DNA of 64,000 nt from Gemmatimonadota bacterium. GTDB taxonomy: Bacteria > Gemmatimonadota > Gemmatimonadetes > JACCXV01 > JAHWKZ01. The stretch lies in contig DATLFH010000082.1 in NCBI GenBank assembly GCA_035524965.1, forward strand, positions 18,989 to 82,988. The letters run 5' to 3'. Of the stretch, positions 1,915 to 44,497 are shown piece by piece. Below the pieces are notes generated by a model, which was not told the origin of the DNA, did not search any database, and saw only the letters and a program-made list of their open reading frames with translations. Within the stretch, counting starts at the first letter, position 1. Every line of letters begins with the position of its first letter. Position numbers and translations under genes: made by a program.

Positions 1915-4158
1915 TTAGAAGCCCTCGCCCAGGGTGGGTTGAGCGTCCTCGAGCCGGCCGCCGGCCGGGCGCGATCCGCCGGCGGGGCGCAGGCTCCGCG
2001 GCCGATCGCGCGGGGTGCCGTAGAACCCCCCTTCCCAGCGGGCTCGCTCGCGCAATGCCTCGGAGGGCTCGAAGCGAGGATCGATCGCGGCCGTCCACTC
2101 GTCCAGCCGGTCGATGATGCGCGGCAGCCCGACCTCGTCGGCCCAGCGCAGGAGGCCGCCGCGAAACGGCGGCCAGCCGATCCCCAGGACGAGCGCCAGG
2201 TCGCCGTCGGCGGGCGAGGCGACGATCCCGTCCGCCAGCGCGCGAGCGGCCTCATTGACCATCGGGTACAGGCAGCGCGCCCAGAGGGCGTCGGCTTCGT
2301 AGACCGGCGCCTCGTTCCCCTCCGCCCCGGGGGGCTGGGGGAGCCCCAGCTCGTCCTTGAGCCGCGGGTCGGCTTCAAGCCGCCGGCCGTCCTTGTAGCG
2401 ATAGAACCCCCGGCCCGACTTCCGGCCCAGGCGTCCCATCGTCTCCAGCCGGTGGAGCAGGGCGTGGGGGCGCATTCGCTCTGGATACGTCGCGGAAAGC
2501 ACCCGGCCGACCCGGGCGGCGACGTCCAGCCCGATCTCGTCGAGGAGTGCGAACGGGCCCATCGGCAGGCCGAATTCCTCGATTGTCGCGTCCAGCGACT
2601 CGATCGAAACCCCCTCCGCATACAGGTGCGCGGCTTCGTTGAGATAAGGCATGAGCAGACGGTTGACCCAGAAACCGGGCCCGTCGCCGACGACGACCGG
2701 CGTCTTCCCGAGCGCGCGCGCCGCGCCGTGGAGGGTCGCGAGTGCGTCAGCCGAGGTCCGCTCCCCGCGCACGACCTCGACCAGGACCATCTTCTCGACG
2801 GGGTTGAAGAAGTGGAGGCCTCCGAACCGCTCGGGTCGCGAGAGGGCGCGGGCCAGATCGTCCACCCGGAGCGAGGACGTGTTGGTGGCCAATACCGCTT
2901 CCTCGGGGACCTGCTTCTCGGCTTCGGCCAGCACCGCCCGCTTGACTTCCGGATCCTCGAAGACCGCTTCGACCACCAGGTCCACCGTGCCGAACCCCGT
3001 GTATTTCGTGGTTCCCGAGATCCTGTGCATCAGGTCCCGGATCTCGCGCCGCGCCAGGCGTCCCTTGCTCTCCGCACGGCGTGCGATCCGGGCCGCGTGG
3101 GCGAGCCCGCCGGCCACGCGCTCCACATCCGTGTCCTTGAGGCGCACGTCGATCCCTCGATACGCCGCGACCTCGGCGATCGCCCCGCCCATCACCCCCG
3201 CGCCCAGAATCGCGATCCGGCGGATCGGCCGGGCGGTCCCGACGGAGAGCGGCCTCCGGGCCGCCTCGCCGTGACGGTAGAGCCAGATCAGGTTCCGGGC
3301 GGCGGGGGTCATCGCCAGCTCGCCGACCGCTTCCGCCTCGGCCTCGAGGCCCTGGGTCATCCCCTGCGAGAGCCCGACCTCGATCGCGTCGATCGCGGCG
3401 AAGGGCGCCGGGTAGTGACCGCCCGTCTCCTCCCGGGCCCTCTTGCGGGCCTGCGACAGGACGAGTCGGCGCCCGATCGGGTTCTTCTCGAGGAGGAGTC
3501 CCGCCAGCCCGCCTCCGCCGGGGCCGCCGGGGAGCTCCGAGCCCCGGATCGCCGCCCGCGCGACCTCATCCGCCACCGTCGTAAGCTGCGCCCGCGGCAC
3601 GGCCCGGTCGACGAGGCCCATCCGCTCGGCGGCGCGGGCGGAAATCCGTTTGCCCGTCAGGATCAGGGTGAGGGCGTTCTTCAGTCCCACGATCCGCGGG
3701 GCGCGCTGCGTGCCTCCCCAGGCGGGGAGGATCCCGAGCTGGACTTCGGGAAAGCCGAGCCGGGTCACCTCGTCCTCGCTCGCAACGCGGAAGGAGCACG
3801 CCAGCGCGAACTCGAGCCCGCCCCCGACGCACGCCCCGTGGATCGCCGCCACGGTGGGGACCGAAAGATCGGCCACACGCTGGAACACCGCCTGACCGCG
3901 CCGCGCGAGCGCCGTGGCCTCGATGCCGGAATCGATCGCCGCCAGCATGTCGAGATCGGCGCCGGCGACGAAGCTGTCGTCCTTTCCCGAGCGGAATACG
4001 ACCGCTCCCAGGTCGCCGCGCCCCGTGAGCTCGGCGAGAACCTGCTCGAGCTCGTCCAGAACCGCCCGCGACCAGAGGTTCACGCGCCGGTCCGGCATGT
4101 CAAAAACGACGTGTGCCAGCCCTTCCCTATCTACGAAGTAGTCGAAGGACGCGCGCAT
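1915..4158 (-). CDS. fadJ: fatty-acid oxidation complex alpha subunit (enoyl-CoA hydratase / 3-hydroxyacyl-CoA dehydrogenase)
   Basis: N-terminal crotonase fold (MRASFDYFVD...AIHGACVGGGLEFALAC) and C-terminal NAD-binding 3HCDH (IAILGAGVMGGAIA). The true start at 4158 (ATGCGCGCG) overlaps the thiolase TGA. The 969-aa ORF in the track has a spurious N-terminal extension. Confidence 0.85.
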   Translation of the reverse strand: MRASFDYFVDREGLAHVVFDMPDRRVNLWSRAVLDELEQVLAELTGRGDLGAVVFRSGKDDSFVAGADLDMLAAIDSGIEATALARRGQAVFQRVADLSVPTVAAIHGACVGGGLEFALACSFRVASEDEVTRLGFPEVQLGILPAWGGTQRAPRIVGLKNALTLILTGKRISARAAERMGLVDRAVPRAQLTTVADEVARAAIRGSELPGGPGGGGLAGLLLEKNPIGRRLVLSQARKRAREETGGHYPAPFAAIDAIEVGLSQGMTQGLEAEAEAVGELAMTPAARNLIWLYRHGEAARRPLSVGTARPIRRIAILGAGVMGGAIAEVAAYRGIDVRLKDTDVERVAGGLAHAARIARRAESKGRLARREIRDLMHRISGTTKYTGFGTVDLVVEAVFEDPEVKRAVLAEAEKQVPEEAVLATNTSSLRVDDLARALSRPERFGGLHFFNPVEKMVLVEVVRGERTSADALATLHGAARALGKTPVVVGDGPGFWVNRLLMPYLNEAAHLYAEGVSIESLDATIEEFGLPMGPFALLDEIGLDVAARVGRVLSATYPERMRPHALLHRLETMGRLGRKSGRGFYRYKDGRRLEADPRLKDELGLPQPPGAEGNEAPVYEADALWARCLYPMVNEAARALADGIVASPADGDLALVLGIGWPPFRGGLLRWADEVGLPRIIDRLDEWTAAIDPRFEPSEALRERARWEGGFYGTPRDRPRSLRPAGGSRPAGGRLEDAQPTLGEGF

Positions 4159-5432
4159 CAGCGCTGGCGGCGGAAGACGATCGCGCCCCCCAAGCCCCCG
4201 CCTACACAAAGGGTGGCGAGACCCCACTCGGCCCCGCGGCGCTTCATCTCGAGGAGCAGCGTCAGCGCGAGCCGCGTGCCGGTCGCCGCGATCGGATGTC
4301 CGAGCGCGATCGCGCCGCCGTTCACGTTGAGACGCTCGGGCCGGATCTCGCCGATCGGCGCCGAACGGCCGAGCATCTCGGCCGCCCATTCCCGGGATGG
4401 AAAGACCTCGAGATTTGCGAGCACCACGGCGGCGAACGCCTCGTTGAGCTCGATCAGGTCGACCTCCTCGAGCCCGATGCCGGCGCGACCCAGGGCGAGC
4501 GGCGCGGCCACCGCCGGCCCCAGCCCCATCCGCCGCGGGTCGAGCCCGGCGTAGCCGAAGGATACGAGTGTGCCCAGCGGATCGTACCCCAGCGCGCGCG
4601 CCCGGTCGGCCTCCATCAACAGGACCGCCGCCGCCCCGTCCGTGATCATCGAGGAGTTTCCGGCGGTCACGGTTCCGTGGCGGCGATCGAAGGCTGGCTC
4701 GAGCCGCGCCAGGGCCTCCAGCGACTGGCCGGGACGGTAGCCCACGTCCTCGGCCACGACGTCGGCGAAGTTGGGGGGGACGAAGACCGGCGTCACCTCG
4801 TCGGCGAAGCGCCCCCCGGCCCACGCCGCCGCCGCCCGTTCATGGGAGCCGAGCGCGTACTCGTCCTGCGATCGGCGCGAGAGGTTGAATTCCTTCGCCA
4901 GCACCTCCGCGGTCTCCCCCATGTTGAGGCCGCAGACCGGGTCCGTCAGGCCCTCGGCGAGCGCGACGACCGGCTTCAGGTGCGCGGGGCGGAGGCGGGT
5001 CGCGACGGCGACCTTGCCGGGCACCGAACGCGCGCGGCTGAGGTCGCTCATGACCCCGGCGAACTCCCCCGGATACTGGAGCGGCACCCGGGACATCGAT
5101 TCGACCCCGCCCGCCAGGACGATATCGGACTGCCCGAGGACGATCTGGTTGTAACCGTCGGTCAGGGACTGGAAGCCGGAAGCGCAGTTGCGGGCGACCG
5201 AGAAGGCCGCTACGGGAGGCGGCACCCCGGCGTAGAGCGCGGCCACGCGGGCGATGTTGGGAGCGTCCGCGGGCGGCGCGGCGTTCCCCAGGATGACCTC
5301 GTCGATTTCAGCGGGATCGATCTCCGTCCGCTCGAGGAGCTCGCGGATCGCGGTCCGTGCGAGCTCGACCGCGTCGACGCGGGCCAGCGCGGTTCCCGCC
5401 TTGGCGAACGGGGTCCGGACCCCGTCTACCAC
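4158..5432 (-). CDS. fadI: 3-ketoacyl-CoA thiolase (FadI/FadA-like acetyl-CoA C-acyltransferase)
   Basis: Thiolase motifs (VRTPFAKAG, NCASGFQS active-site Cys, C-terminal GHPIAATG...CVGGGLGGA). The start is uncertain: no ATG follows the upstream stop, and GTG at 5432 is proposed. Confidence 0.75.
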   Translation of the reverse strand: MVDGVRTPFAKAGTALARVDAVELARTAIRELLERTEIDPAEIDEVILGNAAPPADAPNIARVAALYAGVPPPVAAFSVARNCASGFQSLTDGYNQIVLGQSDIVLAGGVESMSRVPLQYPGEFAGVMSDLSRARSVPGKVAVATRLRPAHLKPVVALAEGLTDPVCGLNMGETAEVLAKEFNLSRRSQDEYALGSHERAAAAWAGGRFADEVTPVFVPPNFADVVAEDVGYRPGQSLEALARLEPAFDRRHGTVTAGNSSMITDGAAAVLLMEADRARALGYDPLGTLVSFGYAGLDPRRMGLGPAVAAPLALGRAGIGLEEVDLIELNEAFAAVVLANLEVFPSREWAAEMLGRSAPIGEIRPERLNVNGGAIALGHPIAATGTRLALTLLLEMKRRGAEWGLATLCVGGGLGGAIVFRRQR

Positions 5433-9004: not shown

Positions 9005-9916
9005 CTAGTCGGCGATGGCGTCGGGAAAGATATACTTCAGCGGATTCACCGGCCGCCCATTCTCGTGCACCTCGTAGTGCACGTGTGGAGCCACCGAGAA
9101 GCCCGTCGATCCGACCAGGGCGATCACATCCCCGCGCTGGACCCCCTCCCCGGACCTGACGACGACCCGCGAAGCGTGCGAGTACGCCGTCGTGACGCCG
9201 TGGCCATGATCGATCACGACGTAGTTCCCGTGGCCGTTCTCCCAGCCCGCCTTGAGGATCCTTCCCGCCGCCGTCGCCACGATCGGGTTGCCCCGCCGTG
9301 AAGAGATGTCGATCCCGTAATGCGGCCGAACGTCATGGAAGATGGGGTGCCGGCGGTGGTGCGAGAAGGTGCTGGAGAGGAAGCCGGAGGCGGGCCAGAT
9401 CGACGGAGTGGCCGCGAAACGGGCCTTCTTGTCGACGATCGACTTTCGAACGTCGTCCATGCTGCTGGCCAGGAGCTCGCTGCGCTTCAGCAGCATGTCG
9501 AGCGAGGTCGCCATCGAACCCACCCGCCCGTCGATATCCCCGTCGACATCCCCATCCACGAGGAGAGGGTGGTCGGGGCCGCCGACCCCGATCGCCTGGA
9601 CCTCCACGGGCATCGGCGGCAGGTCGGCCACCAGCCTGAGCTCCTCCTCCCGGTCGAGCAGCGATTCCATTTCCTGACCCAGCGTGGCGACCCGGCCTTC
9701 TAGCGCGGAGATCTCACTCTGCAGCCGGGCATCCTCGACGGCCGCGCCCGTACCCCGACCCGCGTCCAGAGCCAACGCCGCGGCTCCAACGGCTAGGGCC
9801 AGCGCCCCGGCCCCGACCGTGGAGAGACCGAGTACGGTTCGGCGGCAGAAGCGGACCGACCTCACGTTGCTGTTCTCATGTGGAATGTACAATAGCGTAC
9901 CGATTCGATCTGACAC
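9005..9916 (-). CDS. M23 family metallopeptidase (LytM domain) with N-terminal coiled coil
   Basis: HYGIDI (HxxxD) and PHVHYEV (HxH) catalytic motifs. The start could be further downstream (GTG). Confidence 0.75.
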   Translation of the reverse strand: MSDRIGTLLYIPHENSNVRSVRFCRRTVLGLSTVGAGALALAVGAAALALDAGRGTGAAVEDARLQSEISALEGRVATLGQEMESLLDREEELRLVADLPPMPVEVQAIGVGGPDHPLLVDGDVDGDIDGRVGSMATSLDMLLKRSELLASSMDDVRKSIVDKKARFAATPSIWPASGFLSSTFSHHRRHPIFHDVRPHYGIDISSRRGNPIVATAAGRILKAGWENGHGNYVVIDHGHGVTTAYSHASRVVVRSGEGVQRGDVIALVGSTGFSVAPHVHYEVHENGRPVNPLKYIFPDAIAD

Positions 9917-11147: not shown

Positions 11148-12737
11148 CTAGGCCGTCCCGGCCGGCTCGAGCCGCGGGTAGAGGGGCGGGCCGACGGTGA
11201 CCTCGGCCGCATCGAGCACTCCCCAACGGAGCGCCTCCGGGCCCGGGACCTCGGGCTGTCCGAGGGACGCCAGCAGCCGGCCACAAAGCTCGGGGCTCAC
11301 CGGCCAGAGGAGTGCCGCCGCCAACCGCACCGCCTCGGCCGCGTGGAGCAGGGTCGCGGCCACCTCCGTGCGGGCATCGACCGCCTTGGCCCGCTGCCAG
11401 GGCGCGCGCCGTTCCAGGTATTCGTTGGTGGCCGACACGAGGCCCATCACCCGCCCAACGGCGGCCTGGGGCCGCCAGGCGTCCCACTCCTCGGCAACCT
11501 TCCCCCCGAGCAGCCCCTCTGCGAGCTCCCGCAACGCGGTCTCGTCCACGCCGCCGGACCCGGCCCGGCTCGGCAGCCTGCCTTCGAGGTAGCGACCGAT
11601 CATTTTCGTGACCCGGGCGTGGAGGTTGCCCAGGTCGTTCGCGAGGTCGGCATTGAGCCGCTGGACCAACGAATCGTACGAAAACGTACTATCCTGGCCG
11701 AGGGTCATCTCGCGGAGCAGATAGTACCGGACGCCGCTCACGCCGAAGACCTCGACGAGCTCTTCCGGCCCGACGACGTTGCCGGTCGTCTTCGACATCT
11801 TTCGCCCCTCCCAGAGCCACCAGCCATGGGCCAGGATCTGGCGCGGCAGGGCCCAGCCGAGGGCCATCAGGATCGTGATCCAGTAGACGGAGTGGGTCGT
11901 CAGGATGTCCTTGCCCATCAAGTGGACGTCGGCCGGATGGTCGTTCCAGGCGCCGATCGCCCGCCGGGCGCTCTCCTCGGGCGGTTCGCCGGCCATCGGG
12001 TCGACCGTCCCGGTCACGTAGTTCAGGAGCGCATCGACCCAGACGTAGGTCACGAACCGCTCGTCCCAGGGGAACGGGATCCCCCACTCCAGCCGCTCGC
12101 GCGGGCGCGAGATGCAGAGATCCCCGAGCGGTTCCCGCAGAAACCCGAGAATCTCGTTGGCGCGCGTGCGGGGAACGATGAAGCCGCTGTTTTCCCGGAT
12201 GTGCCCGACGAGTCGCTCCTGGAACGCGCTCATGCGGAAGAACCAGTTCCGCTCCTCGATCTCCTCCACCGGTCGCCCGCAGTAGGGACAACGGCCATCC
12301 GCGAGATCCTTTTCCGTCCAATACCGCTCGTCGGAGACACAGTACCATCCCCGGTAGGCGTCCTCGTAGAGGAGCGGCCGGCCGTCGGTCGTCACGCCGC
12401 TGCGGAGTCGTTCGAGCGCTTCGCGAACGACGGCCACGTGGTCCGGATCCGTCGTTCGGATGAAGCGATCGTAGCCGATCCCCAGGCGGTCCCAGGTAGC
12501 CCTCCAGAAGGGGGCCAGCTCGTCCACGTGGGCCCGCGGGTCGATCCCGCGGCGCTCGGCCGCCCTGGCGACGCTCTGACCGTGCTCGTCGGTCCCGGTC
12601 AGGAACCGCACCTCGACCCCCGTCATCCGACGGCGGCGGGCGATGACGTCGGCGAGGATCGTCGTGTAGGCGTGGCCGATGTGGGGCCGGTCGTTGACGT
12701 AGTAGATCGGGGTGGTGAGATAGTACCGGTCGGACAT
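11148..12737 (-). CDS. metG: methionyl-tRNA synthetase (short form)
   Basis: HIGH motif (PHIGHAYT), KMSKS motif (KMSKTTGN) and zinc knuckle (CPYCGRP). Confidence 0.9.
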   Translation of the reverse strand: MSDRYYLTTPIYYVNDRPHIGHAYTTILADVIARRRRMTGVEVRFLTGTDEHGQSVARAAERRGIDPRAHVDELAPFWRATWDRLGIGYDRFIRTTDPDHVAVVREALERLRSGVTTDGRPLLYEDAYRGWYCVSDERYWTEKDLADGRCPYCGRPVEEIEERNWFFRMSAFQERLVGHIRENSGFIVPRTRANEILGFLREPLGDLCISRPRERLEWGIPFPWDERFVTYVWVDALLNYVTGTVDPMAGEPPEESARRAIGAWNDHPADVHLMGKDILTTHSVYWITILMALGWALPRQILAHGWWLWEGRKMSKTTGNVVGPEELVEVFGVSGVRYYLLREMTLGQDSTFSYDSLVQRLNADLANDLGNLHARVTKMIGRYLEGRLPSRAGSGGVDETALRELAEGLLGGKVAEEWDAWRPQAAVGRVMGLVSATNEYLERRAPWQRAKAVDARTEVAATLLHAAEAVRLAAALLWPVSPELCGRLLASLGQPEVPGPEALRWGVLDAAEVTVGPPLYPRLEPAGTA

Positions 12738-37134: not shown

Positions 37135-37644
37135 TCACAAATTTCGGGCGCTCTCGGATTCCTTCTTCAAGGACCGGACGACACTTTCGTCCCTCGTTTC
37201 CGGAACGAGCTCTTCCGGCCCGCGCTCGCCGGAGCCCACCCGCAAGCGGGCCTCGTCGGCCTGTGTGAACTCCATCCGACAGCTCCCCTCGAAGAACACG
37301 CCCGGCTCGATCACGAAGGAGCGGGTCAGGACGTCGCCTTCCAGCCGGGCCCCCTTCTGGAGCTCGACCTGCTCGGTGCCCAGAACCTCCCCCTTGAACC
37401 GCCCGCCGATGACGACCGACCGGCCGCAGGCGGTCCCGCTGAACGAGCCCGCCTGCCCGATGATCAGCGTTTCCCCGACCTCGAGACGCCCCCGGAAGGC
37501 GCCGTCCAACCTGAGCGTGCCCTCGACGCGGGCGGTCCCCTCGCACTCGACCCCCGTCCCCAACAGCGAGCTCAGTCCGTTGCTCGTCCCCTCCCGCCTG
37601 GACATCGTGTCCTCCTCTGGCTCTGGTCTGAATCCCCGGATCAT
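37135..37644 (-). CDS. bactofilin (polymer-forming cytoskeletal protein, DUF583)
   Basis: Repetitive beta-helical pattern (GTLRLDGAFRGRLEVGETLIIGQAGSFSGTACGRSVVIGGRFKGEVLGTEQVELQKGARLEGDVL). ATG overlaps the TGA of the M23 gene. Confidence 0.8.
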   Translation of the reverse strand: MIRGFRPEPEEDTMSRREGTSNGLSSLLGTGVECEGTARVEGTLRLDGAFRGRLEVGETLIIGQAGSFSGTACGRSVVIGGRFKGEVLGTEQVELQKGARLEGDVLTRSFVIEPGVFFEGSCRMEFTQADEARLRVGSGERGPEELVPETRDESVVRSLKKESESARNL

Positions 37645-38450
37645 GGAAGGTAGGGCGCGGGGTCGATCGGCAGCCCGCCTCGACGCACCTCGTAATGGAG
37701 ATGCGGGATGTCGGATCGACCGCTGCTGCCGCTGGAGGCGATCGTCTCGCCGCGCTCCACGGCTTCCCCCCGTTCGACCCGCACGCGCGCATTGTGCGCA
37801 TACATCGTTTCGGTCCCGCCGCCGTGGGACAGGACTACGAAGTGCCCCAGAGCCTGGTCGTACCCCGTCTGCTTCACCGTGCCGGACCCGGTCGCCTGCA
37901 CGGCGGTCCCCGCCGGCGCGGCGATGTCGATCCCGGGGTGGCCGTCGATTCCCGTAAACCGCGCGTGGACCGTCCCCCGGATCGAGAGCGGCCAGCCCGA
38001 GGGGTCAGTCCCGCTTGCCGGCCGGGGCCCCGGCGCGGAGGCGATCGGCTCGATTCGCGCCGCGGAGGCGGTCGGATCGACCCGCGGGGCGGCCGCCGAT
38101 CCGACCGCTATCCCCGTCTCCTCCGTTCCCTTCCGTGGGATCTCAGGCATCGACAGCCCGGCCAGGAGACGAATCTGACGGTACGCCTCCTCGGTCCGCT
38201 CGAGGTTGGCCTGGAGCTCATGGATCTTCTCGTTCTCCGCCGCCAGACGTGCGTTTTCCAGTTCCAGCAGGTCGGTACGGATCGCGCGCGCCGTCAACCG
38301 CCCATATGCCAGGATCGCCGCCCCCGCGAGGAGTCCCACCGCCAACAGGCTGATCCCGGCCGTCCGCAGCCCCCGGTAAGAGAGCCGGAGCCGCCGGACC
38401 CCCCGTTCGTCGTGGGGCACCATCAGCAAGGTCAGGTATTTTTCGCTCAT
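37641..38450 (-). CDS. M23 family metallopeptidase with N-terminal TM and coiled coil
   Basis: HPGIDI (HxxxD) and PHLHYEV (HxH) motifs, intact and apparently catalytic. ATGA overlap with parB upstream and bactofilin downstream. Confidence 0.75.
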   Translation of the reverse strand: MSEKYLTLLMVPHDERGVRRLRLSYRGLRTAGISLLAVGLLAGAAILAYGRLTARAIRTDLLELENARLAAENEKIHELQANLERTEEAYRQIRLLAGLSMPEIPRKGTEETGIAVGSAAAPRVDPTASAARIEPIASAPGPRPASGTDPSGWPLSIRGTVHARFTGIDGHPGIDIAAPAGTAVQATGSGTVKQTGYDQALGHFVVLSHGGGTETMYAHNARVRVERGEAVERGETIASSGSSGRSDIPHLHYEVRRGGLPIDPAPYLP

Positions 38451-39322
38451 CGGGAAACGCGCTGGAGCCTCTCGACGATCCGCTCGAGATCCTCGAAGGA
38501 GTAGAACGCGACCTCGATCCGGCCCCTCCCCCTGGCCGTTGCACGAATCGTGACGCGGGTTCCGAGCTGCCGTTGCAGGTCCTCCTCCATCCTCTGGCGC
38601 TCGAGATCCTGCGACCTTGCGGCTGCGGGCCGTTTCCCGCCCCGGTCGCTGTTTTCCCGCCGAACGAGGCGCTCCGTCTGGCGGACTGACAACCCCCCCC
38701 GGGACGCCTTCCGGGCCAGCGCGACGAGGCGGCGCCGGTCGGCGAGGCCGAGCAAGGCCCTCCCGTGTCCCGCGCTCAGCGCCCGTTGACGGATCATCGC
38801 CCGCACTTCCTCGGACAGGTCGAGGAGCCGGAGCGCATTCGCGATCGCCGGCCGGCTCTTTCCGACCCGCTCGGCCACGTCGCCCTGGGTCAGGTCGAAC
38901 TCCTGGATCAGCCGTGCATACCCGGCCGCTTCCTCGATCGGATCCAGGTCCTCGCGCTGCAGGTTCTCGATGAGGGCGAACTCCAGCAGCTCGCGATCGT
39001 CCACCTCACGCACGAGCGCCGGCACTTCCGCCAGCCCCGACAGGCGCGCGGCGCGCCACCGCCGTTCCCCCGAGACGAGCTCATACTCCCCATCCTCGCG
39101 CGGCATCACGATCACGGGCTGCAGGACTCCGACTTGGGCGATCGATGCGGCGAGCTCGGCGAGCCCCTCGTCGTCGAACGCCCCACGGGGCTGGAACCGG
39201 TTGGGAACGATCCGCGAGACATCGATCTGCTCGACGCCCCTCTCGGCACCCCGTGCGGCTTCGACCGCCGACTCGCCTAGCAGGGCGCCCAAGCCCTTTC
39301 CGAGTCGCTTTCTCGAGCTCAC
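38447..39322 (-). CDS. parB: chromosome partitioning protein ParB
   Basis: ParB box (GERRWRAA), HTH and C-terminal dimerisation region. GTG start overlaps the parA TGA. Confidence 0.9.
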
Positions 39323-40272
39323 TGGGCGATCAGCTCCTCCGCGAGATTCATGTAACCCACCGCGCCGGCCGACAGGATATCGTAGAGGATGACGGGCTTT
39401 CCGAAGCTCGGCGCCTCGGAGAGCCGCACATTACGGGGAATGACGGTATCGTACACTTTCTCGCCGAAATACTCAACCGCCTCCTCCTCCACCTGCCGGG
39501 CCAGGTTGAGGCGCGCGTCGTACATCGTGAGCAGGACGCCTTCGATGGAGAGTCGCGGGTTGAGCTTCTTCTGGACGATGCGGATCGTGCCCAGAAGCTG
39601 CGAGAGCCCTTCCAGGGCGTAGTATTCGCACTGGATCGGTATGAGGACGGAGTCGACCGCCGTCAAGGCGTTGACCGTCAGCAGTCCGAGCGAGGGGGGG
39701 CAGTCGACGAAGATGAAGTCGTACCCGCTCCGGTGGCCATCGAGCGCGGCCTCGAGGCGGTGCTCGCGCCCGATCGCGCTGACCAGCTCGACCTCGGCTC
39801 CGAAGAGATCGACGTTGGCGGGAGCGAGGTCGAGGAACGCGATCGAAGTCGGCAGGATCGCCTCGGCGAGGGGGACGTCGTTGACGATGACGTCGTAGAC
39901 GCTGGTCCGCAGCGACTCCTTGGCGATCCCAAGCCCGCTCGAGGCGTTCCCCTGCGGGTCCAGATCGATGAGGAGGGTTCGTTTCTCGGCCGCGGCCAGG
40001 CAGGCGGCAAGGTTGACCGCGGTCGTCGTCTTGCCGACTCCCCCCTTCTGGTTGGCGATCGCGATGACGCGGGCGCTCGGAGAAGCTACGCGAATTTCCG
40101 CCGGTGCTGTTTCACGTGAAACGTCCGGGGGCGAGGCGGATGAATCGGGCCGCCCGGCATCCGCCCGCGTGACGGGCGGATCGGCGGCGAAAACCCGATC
40201 CAGCTCGTCCCCGTCCCTCCGCACGGGCGCCGGTCCATCCTTCCCCCGTTCCCGCCCGCGACCCTTCGTCAT
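39319..40272 (-). CDS. parA: chromosome partitioning ATPase ParA/Soj (with Arg-rich N-terminal extension)
   Basis: Deviant Walker A ([18 protein letters not shown]). The first in-frame canonical start is ATG at 40272; no ATG/GTG/TTG lies closer to the Walker A. The 969-aa ORF in the track is a read-through artefact. Confidence 0.8.
40108..40123. promoter_or_regulatory. parS centromere-like site (TGTTTCACGTGAAACG)
   Basis: 15/16 match to the TGTTTCACGTGAAACA consensus. It is palindromic and the only such site in the window. It lies in the parA 5' region. Confidence 0.7.
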
Positions 40273-40424
40273 CGAGCCCCGGCGGGGGGTCGACCCGGCA
40301 GGTCGAACGCGAGTCTCCCCGCTCGGCGAGTGGTCCGTCGTCGTACTATCCTCGAGGAAAAAGGTCGGCGTCGCCCGCTCTCCAAAACCCGCAATGTGCG
40401 CGACCCCTCCCGGAACCGCAAGCT

Positions 40425-42095
40425 TCAGCCGGGTGTCGCCCCAGATGCCGCTTCGGCGGCTTCCCTCTGTACGGACCGGTGAAGCCACCATTGTTGAATA
40501 AATGTGAGCAGATTCGAGAAGGTATAGTAAAGCACAAGACCCGCGGCCAGGGTCAGAAAGACGAACGTCAGGACGATCGGCATCAGGTACGTCATCGCCG
40601 CCATCCGTGGATCGGTCGCGGTCAGCTTGGACGAAGCCATCATCGTAAGCCCCATCAGGATCGGCAGGATGTAGAGCGGGTCCGGCTGGGAAAGATCCGG
40701 CAGCCAGAGGAACGCCTGACCGCGGAACTCGATGGTACCCTGGAACACGAAGAAGAGAGCGAAAAGGATCGGCATCGGAATCAGGTTCGGGAGGCAGCCT
40801 CCCAGCGGGTTGACCTTCTTCTCCCGGTAGAGCCGCATCGTCTCCTGCTGCATCCGTTGCGGATCGTTCTTGTATTGGTCGCGGAGCTGCTGGATTTCCG
40901 GCTGGAGCTCCTGCATCGCGCGGATCGAGTGATACGATTTCGTGGTCAGCGGCCACATCACGAGCCGCACGAGGAGGCCGAAGACGATGAGCACGATCCC
41001 ATAGCTGGGGATGAACTGGTGGAGCCAGAGCATCACGATCACGATCCCCTTGGCGAACGGCGTGATCATCCACCGGATCCAGGACCAGCCGTATTCGTTG
41101 ACGTCGTCGAGACCTTCGTTCAGGGTCGCCAGCCGGCGATACTCCTGCGGGCCGAGGTAGATCCGGTACGCCCCCTTGCCGGCTTCGATCGGCGAGCCGA
41201 CGATGATCTCGAAGGACGGAAGGGTGTCGCTGGCGACGCCGGCGATCGTCGTCGCGGAGAGCGGCGGACCCTGAGGCGGGGCGAGGACCATCGCCAGGAA
41301 GTACTTGTTCCGCAGCCCCGCCCAATCGATCGGCCCGCCGAGCGCCAGGGCCTCGCCGCCATCGACGTCCTTCGCCTGCCGGGTCACGATCTCGCCCCCC
41401 ACCCGGGCCACCGCCCGAAGCTGGCCATAGTCCTCGCGGGGGTTCTTCTCGTTGGATTGCAGCCGGGGCGCGATCCCGGTCACCAGGACGCCGTCGACCG
41501 GGGTGCCGAGATCGAGCTGGTAGTCGACCGCGTAATCCTCGGGATCGAACCGGTAGCTCTGCACGATCCGCCCGCCGTCCAGGTCGGCGGTGAGCGTCAA
41601 CGTCCGCGCGGAATCGCCCTCGACCAGTCGGATCGACGAGGGGCTGGCAACGAAGTCGAGCGAGTGGATCGGGACCCGCCGGTCGTCCAGGTCGGCCGCC
41701 CGGCGGAGGAAATCGGCATCGGGGGGAACCAGCTCCACCGGACCGGGAGCGGTGAAGGACGGGTACCGAATCAGGGAGGCCTGCCGGATCCCGCCTCCCC
41801 GGGGATCGATCGAAAGGCGGTAGAGCGGGGTTTCCACGATGACCGCTGCCGGACGGACGGACGGCGGCCCCGTCTCGGGCATCCCGTCCACCGGTTCCGC
41901 GGGCAGACCGGCTCCCGGCGGCTGGAGGGCCGGCGTTTCCCGGGCCTCCCGCCCGACGGGGCGGCCGGGCGCGGTCGTGTCCGCCGGCGCCACGGGCTCC
42001 GGGGGTGGGGTCATCCGGCTGTACCACCACTGGCTCGCCACCAGAACGACCGCCATCAGGACGAAGGCGAGGAGGACCCGCTTCTGATCCGTCAT
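40425..42095 (-). CDS. yidC: membrane protein insertase YidC
   Basis: N-terminal TM, large periplasmic domain and C-terminal 5-TM core ([15 protein letters not shown]). Confidence 0.9.
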
Positions 42096-42322
42096 ACCCC
42101 TCGGGCGTCCGCCGGTGGTGGCACCGGGTCATAGCCTCCCGGTCGCCAGGGATGGCACCGCAGGATTCGCCGTGCCGCGAGGCCCGCGCCGCGCGCAATC
42201 CCGTGCAACTCGATCGCCTCGAGCGCATAGGTCGAGCACGAGGGGGTGTACCGGCAGGGGGACGGAAACCACGCGGTCGCGACCTGGTAGGCCCGTATCA
42301 GGACGGTGAGGATCGCCTTCAC
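42092..42322 (-). CDS. yidD: membrane protein insertion efficiency factor YidD
   Basis: [19 protein letters not shown] signature. ATGA overlap with yidC. Confidence 0.8.
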
Positions 42323-42845: not shown

Positions 42846-43004
42846 CCGATCTCCGCGATGGAATCGATGGAATAATGATTCTATGCCCGGGAAAAGCCGG
42901 GAAAGCAACCGGAAAAGGAAGGTGAATATAGGATTTGCGCCCGCGAGGCGTCAACCGGCGAGCGGTCCGCTGGAACCGTCTGGATGGAAGCTTTGTCGCC
43001 ACTG

Positions 43005-43033
43005 TTGACAGTCCACCGACCGCTCGCTACTAT
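43005..43033 (+). promoter_or_regulatory. candidate sigma-70 promoter for dnaA (TTGACA-17 bp-TACTAT)
   Basis: Perfect -35 TTGACA at 43005..43010 and -10 TACTAT at 43028..43033 with a 17-bp spacer, about 65 nt upstream of the proposed dnaA start. Confidence 0.45.
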
Positions 43034-43099
43034 GATTTCCCTCTCGACCGCTTCGCACAATTCCAGCTCGCCATTCCCAGCCCTGCGGAGCTCACCGGG

Positions 43100-44497
43100 T
43101 TGCACTCTGCCGAATTGACCGCGCCCGAAGTGTGGTCGCTGATCCTCGCCGAGACGAAGAAAGTCGTTAGCAGTCACACCTTCAGCACTTGGCTCGAGCC
43201 CACTGAAGCGCTGGCGCTTTCCCAGGATCAGCTCCTCGTCGTTGCGAAGAACCAGTTCGCGGCGGACTACATAGACGGGCAGTACGGCGAGACGCTCGCC
43301 AGTATTGCGGAGAGCCTGTTCGGAAATGAACTCGCGATCGCCTTTCAGTCGGCCGCCCCGGACGAGTCTCCGGAAACGCCGGATCGCGGCGTGCCCTCCG
43401 ACGACATCGCGCGCCCCGCGGGCCCGGTCGCGCCCGGCGAGAGGGGCCGACTCGCGGGGAATCGCCCGGCGTATCTCGGGCTCCCGCTCAACGAACGCTA
43501 CGTATTCGATACGTTCGTGGTCGGCAACTCGAACCAATACGCTCACGCGGCATCGATCGCGGTAGCGGAGAGGCCCGGACAGGCGTTCAACCCCCTCTTC
43601 ATCTACGGTGGAGTAGGTCTTGGCAAGACGCATCTCATGCAGGCGATCGGGCATGAGATCCTGTCCTCCGCCAAGCTCGGACGCGTCTGCTATATGTCCG
43701 CCGAGACCTTCATGAACCAGATGATCGAGGCGTTGCAGTTCGGAAAGACGCTCGAGTTCCGCAACAAGTACCGCCGGGTGGACCTGCTGCTGATCGATGA
43801 TGTGCAGTTCCTGCAGGGGAAGGACGCGACCCAGGAGGAGTTCTTTCACACCTTCAACGCCCTCTATGACGCGCACAAGCAGATCATCCTCACCAGCGAC
43901 CGGCAGGCGAAGGAGATCCCGACCCTTGAGGAGCGTCTCGTCTCCCGCTTCGAGTGGGGGCTGGTCGTCGATATCAAGCCGCCCGATCTCGAGACGCGCA
44001 TCGCCATCCTCCAGCACAAGGCCGGCCGCAACAGTCTGGAGCTCCCCCAGGAGGTGCTCCTTTTCATCGCCAGCAACGTCAAGTCGAACGTGCGGGAGCT
44101 CGAGGGTTCGCTCGTCCGGCTGATCGCTGCCTCGAGCCTCAACGGTCTGGACATCACGATCGAGCTCGCGGAGGAAGTCCTCAAGAACATCCTCACGACC
44201 GAGATCCGACGCGTGACCGTGGACCGGATCCAGCACGAGGTCGCCAGCGAGTACGATGTGACGATCGAAGGGCTGAAATCGAGGCGGCGGACCAGGACCT
44301 TGACGGTCCCCCGTCAAGTGGGGATGTACCTCTGTCGCCAGCTCACCGATCTTCCGCTGGTCGAAATCGGACAGGCGTTCGGGGGGCGTGACCACACCAC
44401 CGTCATCCACGCCTGTGACAAAGTCGAGCATGAGATCCAGGACGATCGCGGCATCCGGATGCGGATCGATGCCCTGCGCGATCGGATCGCCTCTTGA
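43100..44497 (+). CDS. dnaA: chromosomal replication initiator protein DnaA
   Basis: AAA+ Walker A (GGVGLGKTHL), Walker B (LLIDDVQF) and C-terminal DnaA-box-binding HTH. TTG at 43100 with GGAG 9 nt upstream is proposed as the start; the track ORF begins at 42935 within the promoter region. Confidence 0.85.
   Translation: MHSAELTAPEVWSLILAETKKVVSSHTFSTWLEPTEALALSQDQLLVVAKNQFAADYIDGQYGETLASIAESLFGNELAIAFQSAAPDESPETPDRGVPSDDIARPAGPVAPGERGRLAGNRPAYLGLPLNERYVFDTFVVGNSNQYAHAASIAVAERPGQAFNPLFIYGGVGLGKTHLMQAIGHEILSSAKLGRVCYMSAETFMNQMIEALQFGKTLEFRNKYRRVDLLLIDDVQFLQGKDATQEEFFHTFNALYDAHKQIILTSDRQAKEIPTLEERLVSRFEWGLVVDIKPPDLETRIAILQHKAGRNSLELPQEVLLFIASNVKSNVRELEGSLVRLIAASSLNGLDITIELAEEVLKNILTTEIRRVTVDRIQHEVASEYDVTIEGLKSRRRTRTLTVPRQVGMYLCRQLTDLPLVEIGQAFGGRDHTTVIHACDKVEHEIQDDRGIRMRIDALRDRIAS

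Follow-up and report, generated by a model that had tools for sequence, protein, structure and literature searches.

Evidence for a translated N-terminal extension of ParA that carries the origin-proximal parS site in a sub-lineage of Gemmatimonadota

Introduction

The locus that we describe here resembles the Soj/Spo0J-parS systems of Bacillus, Thermus, Myxococcus and Caulobacter in its ParA with a deviant Walker A box, its ParB domains, its 16-bp parS, its position at the origin and its parA-parB operon. However, whereas the sequence NQKGG is preceded by only about 8 residues in typical chromosomal ParA proteins, the ParA encoded in the window (i.e., the whole 64-kb stretch of Gemmatimonadota DNA that was analysed) would, in its probable long form, have about 67 N-terminal residues more than the typical and the structurally solved chromosomal proteins, and the sole parS of the origin region lies in this extension rather than in an intergenic region, in parB or in neighboring genes. 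Intragenic parS sites as such are not new, and one inside parA is already documented in mycobacteria. The first parS of B. subtilis reportedly lies inside spo0J.

In Mycobacterium bovis BCG, one of two parS sites falls inside the parA gene, at a distance of 0.9 kb upstream of parB, and binding of ParB to this intragenic site was proposed to affect parA expression (PMC2346475). ParA of Mycobacterium smegmatis has an extended N-terminus, which is involved in binding to the polar protein DivIVA, an interaction specific to the genus (PMC9298525). The window is similar to M. bovis BCG in that parS falls within parA, here near the 5' end of the gene (codons 51–55 of 317, about 150–165 bp inside it), but the phylum and the sequence are different, and the gene arrangement is gidB-parA in mycobacteria and yidC-parA here. 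The peptide motif ARxRLxxELxxxFxxDPPVT, which characterizes the Gemmatimonadota extension, was not reported in either of the two mycobacterial papers (PMC2346475; PMC9298525).

Longer N-terminal regions are also known from type Ia ParA proteins. The ParA ATPases of P1 (ParA), F (SopA) and RK2 (IncC) carry about 100 additional amino acids at the N-terminus, and IncC occurs as a long and a short protein from alternative starts (PMC2666795). The type Ia N-terminal domain contains a helix-turn-helix for operator binding, whereas no known domain matches the extension in the window, for which disorder is predicted apart from an 11-residue helix; since the extension lacks a helix-turn-helix domain, the window ParA is not of type Ia. 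Its core is of the chromosomal Soj type, and it scores far under the cutoffs of the SopA and RepA NCBIfam models (for SopA, 55.9 bits against a cutoff of 725). Further, in contrast to IncC1/IncC2, a conserved internal start is lacking among the 12 related loci compared below. Within the literature searchable, our search for work on Gemmatimonadota partition systems found no paper.

Results

The origin region and the loci compared with it

By Pfam matches, the gene order around the locus is bactofilin, M23 peptidase, parB, parA, yidC, yidD and rnpA on the minus strand, followed by dnaA, dnaN, recF and gyrB on the plus strand from about 43 kb, which identifies the locus as the replication-origin region. 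The bactofilin gene occupies positions 37135–37644, the M23 peptidase gene 37641–38450, parB 38447–39322, yidC 40425–42095 and yidD 42092–42322, with rnpA listed after yidD. The parA gene is encoded on the minus strand and stops at 39319, where parB overlaps the stop codon by 4 nt, and in its longest form it spans 39319..40272, i.e., 317 codons plus stop. The encoded ParB has an N-terminal LGKGLGALL peptide and matches ParB_N (with the sequence GERRWRAA), HTH_ParB and ParB_C, all above their cutoffs, as well as TIGR00180 (187.8 bits, cutoff 58). Judged by these matches, it is a ParB of the canonical type, comprising a CTP-binding N-terminal domain with the GERR box, a helix-turn-helix and a C-terminal dimerisation domain. 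Of the defining features of chromosomal ParABS systems, all those open to a test from the sequence were found here, namely a deviant Walker A ATPase, an adjoining ParB with GERR, helix-turn-helix and C-terminal domains, and a 16-bp parS near oriC, and on this basis the locus belongs to that family.

For comparison we used 12 clade loci, consisting of the window and 11 related loci (L081–L091) of 1–11 kb, most of which span dnaA to the atp genes. L081 was the single locus returned by a metagenome scan with the pattern DPPVTRADA; the other ten were obtained by exact protein look-up, three of them (L089–L091) being chosen on purpose because their annotated ParA is short. The usual gene order in the related loci is dnaN-dnaA, rpmH-rnpA-yidD-yidC-parA-parB-M23-bactofilin, the main exception being L086, which is without the M23-bactofilin pair. 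A tie by co-occurrence between this gene pair and the N-terminal extension was considered and dropped, since L086 has the extension, and bactofilin follows parB also in Gemmatimonadales loci in which the extension is absent (L010, L013).

The parS site

The parS-like palindrome TGTTTCACGTGAAACG is located at 40108..40123 and matches the consensus TGTTNCACGTGAAACA at 15 of 16 positions, as a preliminary description of this DNA had claimed and as our motif scan bears out. The same description called the site single, which is correct for the 64-kb window and extends to that window only: the palindrome is the sole match there at up to three mismatches, for which the chance expectation is 0.18, and also the sole match at up to four. 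At up to one mismatch, we estimate the chance expectation at roughly 0.003 per window. The coding (minus) strand reads GAC GTT TCA CGT GAA ACA, in which the palindrome begins with the third base of the D50 codon and continues through V51-S52-R53-E54-T55. The lone mismatch is the C of this Asp codon GAC, that is, the outermost position of the palindrome and the wobble base of a flanking codon.

The 12 clade loci contain 17 copies of parS, one or two per locus. The 14-bp core GTTTCACGTGAAAC is unchanged in 14 of them, while the other three have one core mismatch each, and most of the other variation falls on positions 1 and 16, the wobble bases of the flanking codons. The codons that the core imposes are seldom used in this genome, GTT accounting for 6.6% of the Val codons, TCA for 0.8% of those for Ser, CGT for 7.4% of those for Arg and GAA for 16% of those for Glu, with a joint probability of 6.5e-6. 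Because the core is kept despite these four rare codons, the parS DNA itself is under selection, and from this pattern we conclude that the DNA sequence is the constrained object.

It could still be argued that the palindrome is a chance occurrence or a relic that is not bound by ParB, with the functional centromere sites elsewhere in the genome, given that the site carries one mismatch to the consensus and that the search covered 64 kb of the genome. This is so improbable as to be hardly credible. The chance expectation is far below 0.2 matches, the mismatch lies at the outermost position, on a wobble base, the core is conserved across the clade against codon preference, and the site is found beside parB and about 3 kb from the start of the dnaA block. 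Further, the copies embedded in parA are the only parS-like sites in each of the 11 related origin loci within the 1–11 kb sampled (7–11 kb for ten of them). By these sequence comparisons, TGTTTCACGTGAAACG at 40108–40123 is a real parS site.

The ParA core and its candidate starts

The deviant Walker A box of ParA, K76-G-G-V-G-K-T-T83 (40024..40047, minus strand), is identified by sequence, domain and structure matches. AAA_31 (E = 3e-66) and CbiA (4e-31) domains begin at residue 68 of the long-form protein, and solved ParA/Soj chains align to residues 66–316, the best being 8RAY_B (E = 2e-95, residues 67–315), followed by 6IUB and 1WCV. All of these solved proteins start at a position equivalent to residue ~65. 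The extension comprises codons 1–67 (40072..40272, minus strand), and residues 1–67 have no match in Pfam, NCBIfam or the PDB sequence set.

Two canonical start codons are in frame after the yidC stop at 40425. The most upstream candidate is the ATG at 40272, which lies 73 codons before N74-Q75-K76-G-G-V-G-K-T, in good agreement with the distance of about 70 codons to the Walker A box given in the preliminary description. That description regarded it as the only in-frame canonical start, which is incorrect, since a GTG (V17, 40222..40224) is also in frame, would yield a protein of 301 codons, and has the better Shine-Dalgarno-like match, an AAGGA-type sequence about 10 nt upstream (duplex energy −8.5 kcal/mol, versus −5.0 kcal/mol for the ATG). 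However, neither codon has a strong and well-spaced Shine-Dalgarno sequence, and the scoring does not separate them. Because the stretch from ATG 40272 to the conserved motif is not conserved, the long-form start may be either of the two. In each clade locus a canonical start, usually ATG, is present upstream of the motif, mostly 10–38 codons before it. Our frame scan of the window agrees with the earlier observation that there is no in-frame ATG, GTG or TTG between parS and the Walker A box.

The parA frame is open far upstream because the DNA of the window is 69% G+C, and this produces a spurious open reading frame of 969 amino acids (39319..42228), which we rejected as a gene since it is a GC-rich open frame that overlaps yidC in another frame.

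The public annotation follows a different model. The NCBI protein HUP01875.1 ("MAG TPA: AAA family ATPase [Gemmatimonadota bacterium]") is identical in sequence but only 258 amino acids long, and starts at an ATT codon (I60, 40093..40095, minus strand). Within the same 90%-identity clusters, ParA proteins named by NCBI have 254–271 amino acids, whereas calls from JGI, ENA and Logan have 311–350, so the gap in length is systematic and depends on the pipeline. Some of the NCBI-named proteins have non-canonical starts, or starts inside strand beta-1.

Comparative evidence that the extension is translated

If only a short ParA were made, as NCBI annotates it, translation would begin at ATT 40095 or at another unusual codon, about 14 codons before NQKGG, parS would lie in the 5'-UTR or promoter, and ParB would autoregulate parAB. 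The preliminary description had offered much the same model, a non-canonical start with parS in the promoter, as one of two options, the other being a genuine N-terminal tail with an intragenic centromere. The short length of typical chromosomal ParA proteins before NQKGG speaks for such a model, and so does the fact that, in other phyla, a short parA is often closely preceded by parS. The comparison with relatives contradicts it.

First, the region upstream of the core evolves as protein-coding sequence in the parA frame. In the ungapped block of 16 codons that covers the motif, pS is 0.66 and pN is 0.21, a relation similar to that in the ParA core (0.56 and 0.145), and the relation inverts in the two shifted frames (pS 0.21–0.26 versus pN 0.38). 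The synonymous changes in the codon alignment include CGG/CGT/CGC/AGG/CGA for Arg, CCG/CCC/CCT for Pro, GAT/GAC, TTC/TTT and GTC/GTG/GTA. Second, all 17 parS copies are read in the one frame that gives V-S-R-E-T, and the linker between the motif and the Walker A box has 12 distinct lengths in the 12 loci (46–87 codons) with the frame always kept, although both counts overstate independence because the clade loci are phylogenetically related. By contrast, among the matches listed for loci of other phyla with parS up to 300 nt upstream of parA, the sites are spread over all three reading frames (about 9:5:7), the one in which parS itself contains TGA among them, and there they precede short ParA proteins whose frame closes a few codons upstream. 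Third, the 12 clade loci have no start codon near the Walker A box in common, and neither the ATT nor its position is conserved. In addition, the Shine-Dalgarno-like match of ATT 40095 is weak and too near the codon.

Comparing the N-termini of orthologues had been suggested in the preliminary description as a check, and it finds the in-frame extension, with the motif and one or two parS copies, in 12 of 12 clade loci, including the three that are annotated as short. Among the closest homologues (65–87% identity; from Gemmatimonadota or soil metagenomes), 49 of 59 have the motif and are 299–359 amino acids long, and in these long homologues the motif precedes the Walker A box and is followed by one or two copies of VSRET. 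The extension is absent from the Gemmatimonadales loci L002, L010 and L013, among the matches listed. A profile search with the extension alone (a 73-aa profile of low power) gave three significant matches, all of them ParA fragments and none from a named other lineage; the small number is due to an E-value scale that is too strict for a profile of this length. GC3 is lower in the extension than in the core (0.71 versus 0.88), in part because parS is AT-rich, and is not decisive on coding status.

Purifying selection at the amino acid level, the fixed frame of parS, the frame-keeping linkers and the lack of a conserved start near the Walker A box thus support translation of the extension, and the option of a genuine tail with an intragenic centromere is the one that is supported. 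The model in which only the short protein is made is contradicted by the same coding evidence and is very improbable; the ATT at 40095 is probably a mis-set start, and the 258-aa protein probably a truncation artefact.

A third possibility is that both forms are made, i.e., a long ParA from ATG 40272 or GTG 40224 and a short ParA by internal non-canonical initiation, as in IncC1/IncC2, with the N-terminal domain modulating oligomerisation or DNA binding. In a few relatives an ATG or GTG does follow the last parS in frame, at a distance of 24 codons from the Walker A box in L081 and of 4–5 codons upstream of it in L083, L089 and L091. However, V17 and the Walker A box of the window enclose no canonical start, the 12 loci share no internal start at a constant position, and starts 1–5 codons before NQKGG would cut into strand beta-1. 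We therefore regard two isoforms as improbable, if less so than a short protein alone.

Composition and predicted structure of the extension

The long-form reading adopted here raises the question of what the extra residues consist of. The low-complexity basic tail of the preliminary description is inaccurate as an account of the whole: richness in Arg and Lys is confined to the first ~19 residues, residues 1–67 contain about 12 basic and about 12 acidic residues, and residues 23–38 form a motif that is conserved across the lineage. This motif, E23–D38 in the window (40159..40206, minus strand), has the lineage consensus ARxRLxxELxxxFxxDPPVTxxD. In the alignment of homologues, F28, P32 and P33 do not vary, and conservation reaches at least 90% at E23, D31, T35 and D38.

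An AlphaFold2 model based on an alignment of 47 sequences gives pLDDT values above 90 for much of the ParA core and of 40–54 for residues 1–62, which are thus mostly disordered by prediction. Within them, a short helix of 11 residues (19–29), modelled at a confidence of about 54, corresponds to the first half of the motif, and the residues encoded by parS fall in segment 40–62, where pLDDT is below 50. The extension therefore probably consists of a variable N-terminus, a short helix-plus-proline motif (E23–D38) and a disordered linker. According to this model, the pentapeptide encoded by parS is placed in the disordered linker, where a fixed peptide is likely harmless. The motif, to judge from its conservation, may bind a lineage-specific partner or regulate ParA itself.

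A conserved element upstream of the long-form start

Upstream of the long form, 61 nt from ATG 40272, is a near-palindromic element, GTACGACGACGGAC (40333..40346, minus strand), with two mismatches to the clade consensus RTACGA-NN-TCGWAC. In the alignment of upstream regions this consensus usually follows TAG or TAA. Eight of 11 clade loci contain a single exact match to it, which in every case lies upstream of parA, and among the matches listed for 80 loci from other phyla there is none. Near-matches elsewhere in the window (e.g., at 11676–11689) lie inside long open reading frames and were dropped. We consider the element at 40333–40346 a candidate operator or promoter for parA. Conserved non-coding sequence at this place, ahead of the long-form start, supports the long parA, as this is where such a control element would be expected, and it is a further point against the short form as the only product. 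In the gap between yidC and parA we found neither a sigma-70-type promoter nor a terminator, and the sigma-70 consensus may not apply to Gemmatimonadota. An Rfam search of the window matched no family, and hence no known leader RNA upstream of parA.

Discussion

Taken together, we consider it probable that this origin-proximal ParABS locus encodes a long ParA of 317 or 301 amino acids with a translated extension of ~67 residues, and that the sole parS of the origin region lies in the disordered linker of this extension, where it is read as V-S-R-E-T. The disordered linker would tolerate the pentapeptide that parS imposes. From what is established for ParABS systems, ParB-CTP would load at 40108–40123, inside parA and close to dnaA, and the loaded ParB would spread over the parAB operon, while nucleoid-bound ParA-ATP dimers would move the ParB-parS complex and thereby bring about segregation. 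More speculatively, ParB loaded at the 5' end of parA could damp transcription of parAB, by analogy with parA of M. bovis BCG.

Compared with the described systems, what appears to be new is a sub-lineage of Gemmatimonadota whose origin-proximal parS has become part of a conserved, motif-bearing N-terminal extension of ParA. This extension appears to be absent from the Gemmatimonadales representatives among the matches listed, and it appears to be systematically cut off in the NCBI annotation.

A more far-reaching interpretation, which we put forward as doubtful, is that the extension is a lineage-specific adaptor, whose helix-PPVT motif acts through a partner (e.g., bactofilin, the M23 peptidase or ParB) to tether ParA or to regulate it. 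Since the first 170 bp of parA contain the sole origin-proximal centromere, the loading of the ParB-CTP clamp would then be coupled to transcription of parAB. If this were true, the arrangement of the locus would itself provide a feedback that links centromere occupancy with the supply of the partition ATPase.

The more probable reading, a long ParA with an embedded parS, has consequences that do not depend on such an adaptor. As the comparison favors the long form, about 60 residues and a conserved motif would be missing from the reference proteins. One stretch of DNA would be subject to two constraints, with a centromere acting at the DNA level and forcing rare codons at a place where a disordered protein linker tolerates them. 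In this lineage, deletion of parA or tagging at its 5' end would affect the only origin-proximal parS as well, either removing or disturbing it, and the phenotypes of parA and parS would therefore be confounded, since the one lies within the other. Finally, the conserved motif points to a lineage-specific partner of ParA or to a regulatory mechanism.

Start annotation of ParA and neighboring ORFs

The annotation of ParA in this clade is systematically split between databases. When the protein clusters of three ParA homologs (P0018, P0050, and P0062) were compared, NCBI-named proteins were 254–271 amino acids long, whereas JGI, ENA, and Logan gene calls from the same 90% clusters had 311–350 amino acids. 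The NCBI starts vary, falling on an ATT codon (40093–40095 in the window), on a Leu codon other than ATG, GTG, or TTG (in clade locus L089), or inside strand beta-1 (e.g., at MVNQKGG).

Mechanically called ORFs in the window are too long because of its high G+C content. The parA frame carries a 969-amino-acid ORF across yidC (39319–42228, minus strand). The dnaA ORF (42935–44497, plus strand) opens with a TTG codon, and the DnaA_N domain begins about 64 codons further on; the true start is therefore probably downstream of this TTG. We did not locate rpmH, which is expected between rnpA and dnaA in the window.

Variation within the parA extension

Several relatives have two parS copies within the extension, spaced 27–60 bp apart and both in the frame encoding VSRET, as in L081 (364 and 424), L088 (3963 and 4023), L090 (4937 and 4964), and L091 (4937 and 4967). 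Degenerate second copies (e.g., CGTTTCCCGTGAAACA and TGTTGCACGTGAAACG) occur in some of these relatives and encode VARET or VPRET; in the window, the second copy was either lost or never present.

In one sub-clade, a strongly basic linker patch (e.g., RRGKKKRKKR) lies right behind the parS-encoded VSRET, namely in L085 (about 5175–5300), L089 (about 3745–3860), and the ParA homologs P0006, P0008, P0046, P0048, and their relatives. This patch, which the ParA of the window lacks, could be an added element for non-specific DNA binding or localization.

A conserved element upstream of parA

A near-palindromic conserved element, RTACGA-NN-TCGWAC, often preceded by TAG or TAA, lies 20–115 nt 5′ of the long-form parA start; the window copy is GTACGACGACGGAC (40333–40346, minus strand). 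Exact matches occur once per locus in 8 of the 11 clade loci (L081, 169–182; L082, 2566–2579; L083, 2295–2308; L084, 4899–4912; L085, 4958–4971; L086, 4873–4886; L089, 3528–3541; L091, 4776–4789), and none was found in the 80 loci of other phyla searched. The element is a candidate −10 promoter region or operator of parA.

Elsewhere in the window, two palindromes resemble this element, GTACGAAAACGTAC (11676–11689, one mismatch) and GTACAATAGCGTAC (9887–9900), both apparently within long ORFs.

The parB–M23–bactofilin neighborhood

Genes for an M23 peptidase and a bactofilin follow parB in nearly all clade loci (L082–L085 and L087–L091; 37135–38450 on the minus strand of the window, 3′ of parB). 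Bactofilin is likewise two genes downstream of parB in Gemmatimonadales loci whose ParA lacks the extension (L010, 7356–7847; L013, 7547–7957). Since both groups of loci have bactofilin, the parAB-X-bactofilin synteny, reminiscent of the bactofilin-M23 modules and bactofilin-ParA links known from other bacteria, looks phylum-wide.
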